Position numbers and translations under genes: made by a program
Part shown: positions 7,621-8,281 of the stretch, piece by piece
Position numbering within the stretch: position 1 is the first letter of the stretch
Layout: every line of letters begins with the position of its first letter
Assembly: GCF_003334255.1 (NCBI RefSeq)
Contig: NZ_QOWU01000092.1
DNA from: Escherichia coli
Lineage (GTDB): Bacteria; Pseudomonadota; Gammaproteobacteria; Enterobacterales; Enterobacteriaceae
Reading direction: 5' to 3' (one strand)
Length of the DNA: 8,303 nucleotides
Notes under the pieces: generated by a model
Database searches by the model: none
Seen by the model: the letters and a program-made list of their open reading frames with translations, nothing else
What the model was told of the DNA's origin: nothing

Positions 7621-8226
7621 ATGATCAAGAAGACAACGGAAATTGATGCCATCTTGTTAAATCTCAATAAGGCTATCGATGCCCACTACCAGTGGCTGGT
7701 GAGTATGTTTCACAGCGTGGTCGCGAGAGATGCCAGTAAGCCAGAAATAACGGATAACCATTCTTATGGACTGTGCCAGTTTGGTCGGTGGATTGATCAT
7801 CTGGGGCCACTCGATAACGATGAATTACCTTACGTTCGGCTAATGGATTCTGCCCATCAACATATGCATAACTGTGGTCGGGAATTAATGCTGGCTATTG
7901 TTGAAAATCACTGGCAGGACGCGCATTTCGACGCCTTTCAGGAGGGGTTGCTTTCTTTTACTGCGGCATTAACCGATTACAAAATTTATTTGCTGACGAT
8001 CCGTAGCAATATGGATGTTTTGACGGGATTGCCGGGTCGTCGGGTTCTTGATGAATCCTTTGATCATCAGTTACGCAACGCTGAGCCTCTGAATCTTTAT
8101 TTAATGTTGTTGGATATTGACCGATTTAAATTGGTTAATGATACCTACGGGCATTTAATCGGCGATGTAGTATTACGCACCCTGGCAACTTACTTAGCCA
8201 GTTGGACGCGTGATTACGAAACGGTT
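7621..8226 (+). pseudogene. dgcZ: Diguanylate cyclase DgcZ (YdeH) truncated by IS1 after codon 202: CZB zinc-sensor domain and start of GGDEF domain retained, GGEEF active site lost
   Basis: Translation from ATG 7621 (MIKKTTEIDAILLNLNKAIDAHYQWL…) matches remembered DgcZ, including zinc ligands H22, C52, H79, H83 and the RxxD I-site (RVLD). Native sequence ends at …TRDYETV at 8226, where IS1 begins. The frame then reads 8 IS1-encoded codons (GDAANLLI) to TAG at 8251-8253. In native DgcZ the next residues are YRYGGEEF. Confidence 0.85.
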
Positions 8227-8249
8227 GGTGATGCTGCCAACTTACTGAT
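8227..8249. repeat. IS1 left terminal inverted repeat (IRL)
   Basis: GGTGATGCTGCCAACTTACTGAT at 8227-8249. Confidence 0.85.
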
Positions 8250-8281
8250 TTAGTGTATGATGGTGTTTTTGAGGTGCTCCA

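Follow-up and report, generated by a model that had tools for sequence, protein, structure and literature searches.

IS1 interruption of the diguanylate cyclase gene dgcZ ahead of its GGEEF codons in an ordinary Escherichia coli clone

The DNA analysed here, referred to throughout as the window, is a stretch of 8,303 nucleotides from Escherichia coli (NCBI RefSeq assembly GCF_003334255.1, contig NZ_QOWU01000092.1). It is a complete short-read contig with 77 nt of IS1 at either end, reaching one k-mer into the repeat, and the two IS1 ends lie in the same orientation. Between them are ydfJ′, ydfI, ydfZ, rspR, ydfG, dcp, ydeJ, ydeI and dgcZ′, the first and last of which are truncated. The order dcp–ydeJ–ydeI–dgcZ is that of annotated E. 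coli genomes, and all genes except ydfJ′ and dgcZ′ have ORFs that equal or slightly exceed in length those called on related contigs. The whole window was found at 100% identity within NCBI contig CBCRYS010000125.1 of assembly GCA_965136505.1 (L006), and an Rfam scan of it gave 0 matches. With direct IS1 copies bracketing the 8.1-kb ydfJ′–dgcZ′ segment, the layout resembles a composite transposon and is deletion-prone; taken alone, the contig fits just as well a circle, a tandem duplication or a similar arrangement in which one and the same IS1 connects its two ends. The features considered below are as follows.

1–77, + strand: right end of IS1 (IRR, ending ...GGAGTCATTACC), with 100% matches to IS1 right ends; adjoins the truncated ydfJ.
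78–469, + strand: 3′ part of the MFS transporter gene ydfJ, truncated by the IS1 on the left; ORF at 116–469, with a ydfJ annotation under the match.
7400–7620, + strand: upstream region of dgcZ, comprising the 5′ UTR and a ribosome-binding site, AGGAG, 9 nt ahead of the ATG; identical to that of an intact-dgcZ strain.
7621–8226, + strand: 5′ fragment of dgcZ, codons 1–202, with the full CZB domain and the first part of GGDEF (residues 130–202), assigned by protein and DNA identity and by Pfam and PDB matches.
7621–8253, + strand: fusion ORF of 210 aa (DgcZ 1–202, then GDAANLLI and a stop), from translation; the exact protein is in public records.
8182–8197, + strand: IS1-end-like 16-mer CTGGCAACTTACTTAG within dgcZ, with 13/16 matches to IS1 IRL positions 8–23 in the same orientation.
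8227–8303, + strand: left end of IS1 (IRL, beginning GGTGATGCTGCCAACTTACTGAT...), first 77 nt, with a 100% match to annotated IS1A copies.
8234–8261: IS1 promoter-like site, from a promoter scan.

The initial annotation had identified the ORF at 7621–8253 as dgcZ interrupted by IS1 shortly before its catalytic motif, and alignment to E. coli dgcZ bore out both the gene and the breakpoint. Residues 1–202 of the ORF were identical in all 202 positions to RefSeq DgcZ (WP_000592814.1, 296 aa; BLASTP). At the DNA level, 7400–8226, including the entire upstream region, showed no difference from a strain with intact dgcZ, to which homology ended exactly past 8226. Past this break the intact gene continues TAT CGC TAC GGG GGC GAA GAA TTT, encoding Y-R-Y and then GGEEF at residues 206–210. 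The break thus falls after nt 606 (codon 202), three codons 5′ of GGEEF. A program-made ORF list starts the frame at a GTG at 7615, and the ATG at 7621 is the annotated RefSeq DgcZ start; no record exists of the 212-aa product that the GTG would give.

Downstream of the break, 8227–8303 showed 100% identity to the left end of annotated IS1A copies. The transposase genes of this element run in the same direction as dgcZ, and the GTG start of insA maps to 8282 when projected from the annotated IS1A copy in E. coli 14EC017 (L001). IS1 contributes eight codons (GDAANLLI) and a stop to the fusion ORF (8227–8253), so that translation yields 210 aa followed by TAG, with the 202 native and 8 IS1-encoded residues that had been predicted. 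In the promoter scan of the window, the IS1 promoter-like site was the sole match and none lay upstream of dgcZ. A complete IS1 is 768 bp long, carries insA/insB′ and generates a target-site duplication of 8–9 bp.

Pfam located the CZB domain at residues 22–89 of the fusion product (model positions 1–63/64) and GGDEF at residues 130–202, covering model positions 2–76 of 161 only; three solved DgcZ structures (PDB 4h54, 3t9o and 3tvk) matched residues 2–202. H22, C52, H79 and H83 are all kept, in agreement with the claim that the four CZB zinc ligands are intact. We take H79 and H83 to be zinc ligands of DgcZ after Zahringer et al. 2013. For His22 and C52, this role is documented (PMC8262984). 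The GG(D/E)EF active-site motif is absent from the ORF, which ends with V202 and the eight IS1 residues. Because GGEEF is missing and less than half of the GGDEF domain is left, no diguanylate cyclase activity is expected; judged by its domains, the truncated product cannot make c-di-GMP, as had been proposed, and the E208Q point mutation alone already renders DgcZ catalytically inactive (PMC8262984). The initial annotation also listed a retained RxxD inhibitory site, which proved to be wrong. At the canonical I-site, five residues ahead of GGEEF, the sequence is R197-D-Y-E200 (RxxE); this is the native DgcZ sequence and is retained in the fragment, and RxxD strings occur in the fragment only at residues 56, 73 and 141. 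This RxxE reading comes from the sequence alone, as no literature statement of the DgcZ I-site residues was found.

In E. coli, DgcZ ranks among the diguanylate cyclases with the highest conservation and activity, and it couples PGA biofilm formation to the sensing of zinc, HOCl and surfaces. The c-di-GMP that it makes controls poly-GlcNAc, and CsrA represses dgcZ translation by acting on the mRNA (PMC8262984), whereas CpxAR drives dgcZ transcription (PMC13131220). We consider it highly probable that dgcZ lost its function here through IS1A transposition after nt 606, most likely by simple insertion, in an ordinary E. coli host. An IS1 of the IS1A type would have entered this zinc- and HOCl-regulated gene; the reading frame runs eight codons into the IS1 inverted repeat before a stop, and the upstream signals are untouched. 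The fragment would then be made under the same controls as DgcZ, its partial GGDEF fold would be unable to form or to catalyse c-di-GMP synthesis, and the input of DgcZ into poly-GlcNAc (PGA) biofilm control would be lost. The stability of the product is doubtful because 74 residues of an incomplete GGDEF fold follow the CZB part, and the partial domain is probably unstable. In annotated genomes, mgtT/mgtS lie downstream of intact dgcZ on the opposite strand, so no polar effect is expected.

Other IS1 insertions in dgcZ served for comparison. In EHEC O26:H11 11368 and related O26/O103 strains (ECO26_RS11225 / ECO26_RS31905), dgcZ is also interrupted by IS1 in the same orientation, giving a 210-aa product without GGEEF. 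That allele differs from the one in the window in that IS1 lies after nt 611, 5 bp downstream of the window's site, on a different backbone, and the element is a different variant with about 92% identity over the junction query; in O26:H11 11368, both gene halves and an 8-bp duplication (GTTTATCG) are visible. It is also widespread, with about 85 complete genomes and 2267 index blocks, against about 10 contigs for the nt 606 allele. E. coli strain 10 (NZ_CP048330) and a number of ESBL isolates carry a further allele in which IS1A, likewise oriented, follows nt 261; the backbone matches the window at 100.0% identity. Both gene halves and a 9-bp duplication mark this allele as a simple insertion, and the cut, unlike that in the window, falls inside the CZB domain. 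In ET665, IS1A lies at about nt 870 in the same orientation and frame, again on a backbone 100.0% identical to the window and with the same GDAANLLI tail, but only the last 6 residues are replaced and the product is annotated as an intact 298-aa DgcZ (WP_112924245.1). For ET665 the left IS1 junction was the part read, and the annotation puts mgtT/mgtS directly after IS1. At all four sites (nt 261, 606, 611 and ~870), IS1 has the same orientation, with IRL towards the 5′ end of dgcZ.

The initial annotation stated that IS1 removes the catalytic core of DgcZ. This is correct for the ORF, whereas for the genome it is no more than a possibility: only 77 nt of this IS1 are included in the window, so that a simple insertion and a deletion look alike here, and every public contig carrying the dgcZ nt 606 junction likewise breaks off within IS1. 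The 3′ remainder of dgcZ beyond IS1 was not recovered: the exact junction had 0 matches among JGI metagenome contigs, and a look-up of the 48-aa ORF possible from the 3′ remnant returned only short, noisy, frameshift-ridden contigs. Position 8227 could then mark the endpoint of an IS1-adjacent deletion or inversion, with the dgcZ 3′ end and perhaps mgtS/mgtT/ydeE gone or elsewhere. No contig reveals the other side of the element, IS1-adjacent deletions are documented in E. coli (PMC8265650), and the second direct-orientation IS1, 8.1 kb away in ydfJ, makes the region rearrangement-prone. We nevertheless regard such a rearrangement as unlikely, as nothing in the data points to a deletion and wherever complete genomes show both sides of an IS1 in dgcZ, the insertion is simple. 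Because those alleles (nt 261 and nt 611) are simple, a simple insertion is the most likely structure at nt 606 as well; 8–9 bp of target would be duplicated, and the last 285 nt of dgcZ would follow directly past IS1. Such an insertion would read ...GGAGTCATTACC, then (G)AAACGGTT, then TATCGCTACGGGGGCGAAGAA.

The truncated product might instead act as a functional CZB-only protein, either a zinc/HOCl binder or an interaction partner, in which case it would not be a dead pseudogene product; the initial annotation had likewise raised zinc binding or heterodimerisation as a possibility. The full CZB domain with its four zinc ligands is kept and the upstream signals of dgcZ are intact. A CZB-only construct of residues 1–128 is stable, folds, binds zinc and reacts with HOCl in vitro (PMC8262984), and in EPEC a DgcZ fragment missing part of the CZB domain gave an unexpected phenotype (PMC13131220). 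The product encoded in the window, however, carries 74 residues of incomplete GGDEF that, from the Pfam match, would be unable to fold alone, and its allele is rare. The IS1 insertions at nt 261 and nt 870 also fit inactivation or neutral hits better than selection for a fragment, and we judge a functional CZB-only protein very unlikely.

The junction lies in a repeat at the end of a contig, which could point to an assembly artefact or to a minority variant of the sequenced culture. Either is extremely improbable, since contigs from different runs and assemblers share the junction (four read, of about 10) and in a mixed population the contig would have broken off at 8226 and not extended one k-mer into IS1. 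A 67-nt junction string was identical in the four independent public contigs read (L005–L008), in which the IS1 overhangs at the junction, across contigs from different runs and assemblers, were 28, 77 and 120 nt. The exact fusion ORF was present on about 10 public contigs, which makes the allele rare, and the exact 210-aa protein is held in NCBI as CAM3336671.1 and CUK19701.1, both labelled Escherichia coli. Neither the dgcZ nt 606 junction nor the ydfJ::IS1 junction was found in any complete E. coli RefSeq genome. The carrier of the window's junctions is a rare clone.

In GTDB, Shigella falls under the E. coli species, and the initial annotation had placed this lesion in a Shigella lineage. 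Our results did not support this placement. In the E. coli collection, at least 25 complete genomes of ordinary strains (human, bovine, water and food origin), most of them with intact dgcZ, matched positions 78–8226 at 100.0% identity; the protein is labelled E. coli, and the second backbone described below is that of STEC. A Shigella origin was rejected on the E. coli protein labels and on the 100.0% identity of both backbones to E. coli. On these matches, the host is an ordinary E. coli lineage and not Shigella. Shigella flexneri 2457T likewise loses c-di-GMP synthesis genes, some via IS elements, but its dgcZ is completely deleted and not split by IS1 as in the window (PMC11327459). The supplements of a Shigella IS study (PMC7373316) held no ydeH, dgcZ, b1535 or ydfJ entry.

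When we compared the public contigs, the identical nt 606 junction and fusion ORF were found on two backbones. Type A comprised the window, L006 and L008, and type B comprised L005 (SRR7358289) and L007 (SRR32729967). Against window positions 78–8254, type B showed 103 differences in ~8180 positions (1.26%), of which two synonymous SNPs fell in the dgcZ fragment, the nearer one 189 nt from the junction; both type B sequences are Logan contigs (k=31), and mixed cultures in the underlying runs would make them chimeric. The type B backbone matched intact-dgcZ STEC strains of E. coli at 100.0% identity and did not have the ydfJ::IS1 of the window; in L005, ydfJ was uninterrupted at the window's IS1 point while the dgcZ::IS1 junction was present. 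The second backbone suggests an independent IS1 insertion at the same nucleotide. Alternatively, the nt 606 junction may have had a single origin and spread by recombination, with one tract end within 189 bp.

Homology to IS1 ends has been noted at IS1 hot spots. The 16-mer CTGGCAACTTACTTAG lies 30–45 bp upstream of the nt 606 insertion point and also upstream of the nt 611 site, and it was the sole non-IS1 match with at most 3 mismatches in the window, where 0.04 were expected; the motif was noticed post hoc, with the junction already known. The GC content of dgcZ is 42–47%. In PMC8265650, where Zerbib et al. 1985 is cited on this point, IS1 is described as favouring AT-rich targets. The bases 5′ of the GGEEF codons could be a true IS1 hot spot with at least three independent hits, perhaps directed by CTGGCAACTTACTTAG, or the hits could reflect convergent selection for DgcZ loss; we put this forward tentatively, as a possible but doubtful reading. 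The hits counted are nt 606 on the two backbones 1.26% apart and nt 611, hit by a different IS1 variant in EHEC O26/O103. Of further hits at the site, neither the predicted opposite-orientation IS1 fusion (228 aa) nor the same fusion on the A153T DgcZ allele is on record.

Two side observations concern the surrounding region. A DgcZ fragment of 249 aa ending ...HINITV and labelled partial was present on 170 contigs, which suggests that in some lineage contigs also break frequently around nt 747 of dgcZ, possibly at another IS site. E. coli 14EC017 (L001) has intact dgcZ, and IS1A copies at 1852–2549 and 4562–5259 flank its ydeI–dgcZ–mgtTS block. With IS1A on either side of this block, the neighbourhood appears to be often hit by IS1.

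Taken as a whole, 7621–8253 is an IS1-generated null allele of the well-studied dgcZ in an ordinary E. coli clone. This dgcZ::IS1 allele is new, but the type of lesion is already known and annotated, and the allele is a routine IS pseudogene; a literature search on natural dgcZ pseudogenes found nothing specific. Its expected phenotype is shared with the laboratory nulls delta-ydeH and E208Q, namely no c-di-GMP from DgcZ and less poly-GlcNAc biofilm when csrA is derepressed (PMC8262984). Whereas those nulls were engineered, the allele in the window is natural, keeps a CZB-containing fragment and adds an IS1 able to drive further rearrangement.

As a natural dgcZ null, the allele predicts a strain-specific loss of DgcZ input, which would be useful for phenotyping this clone. 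Of wider interest is only that IS1 recurs within 5 bp in three backgrounds. Were these events independent, the site would provide a small natural system in which to examine how IS1 chooses its targets, or convergent dgcZ loss in E. coli, the O26/O103 EHEC clade included.
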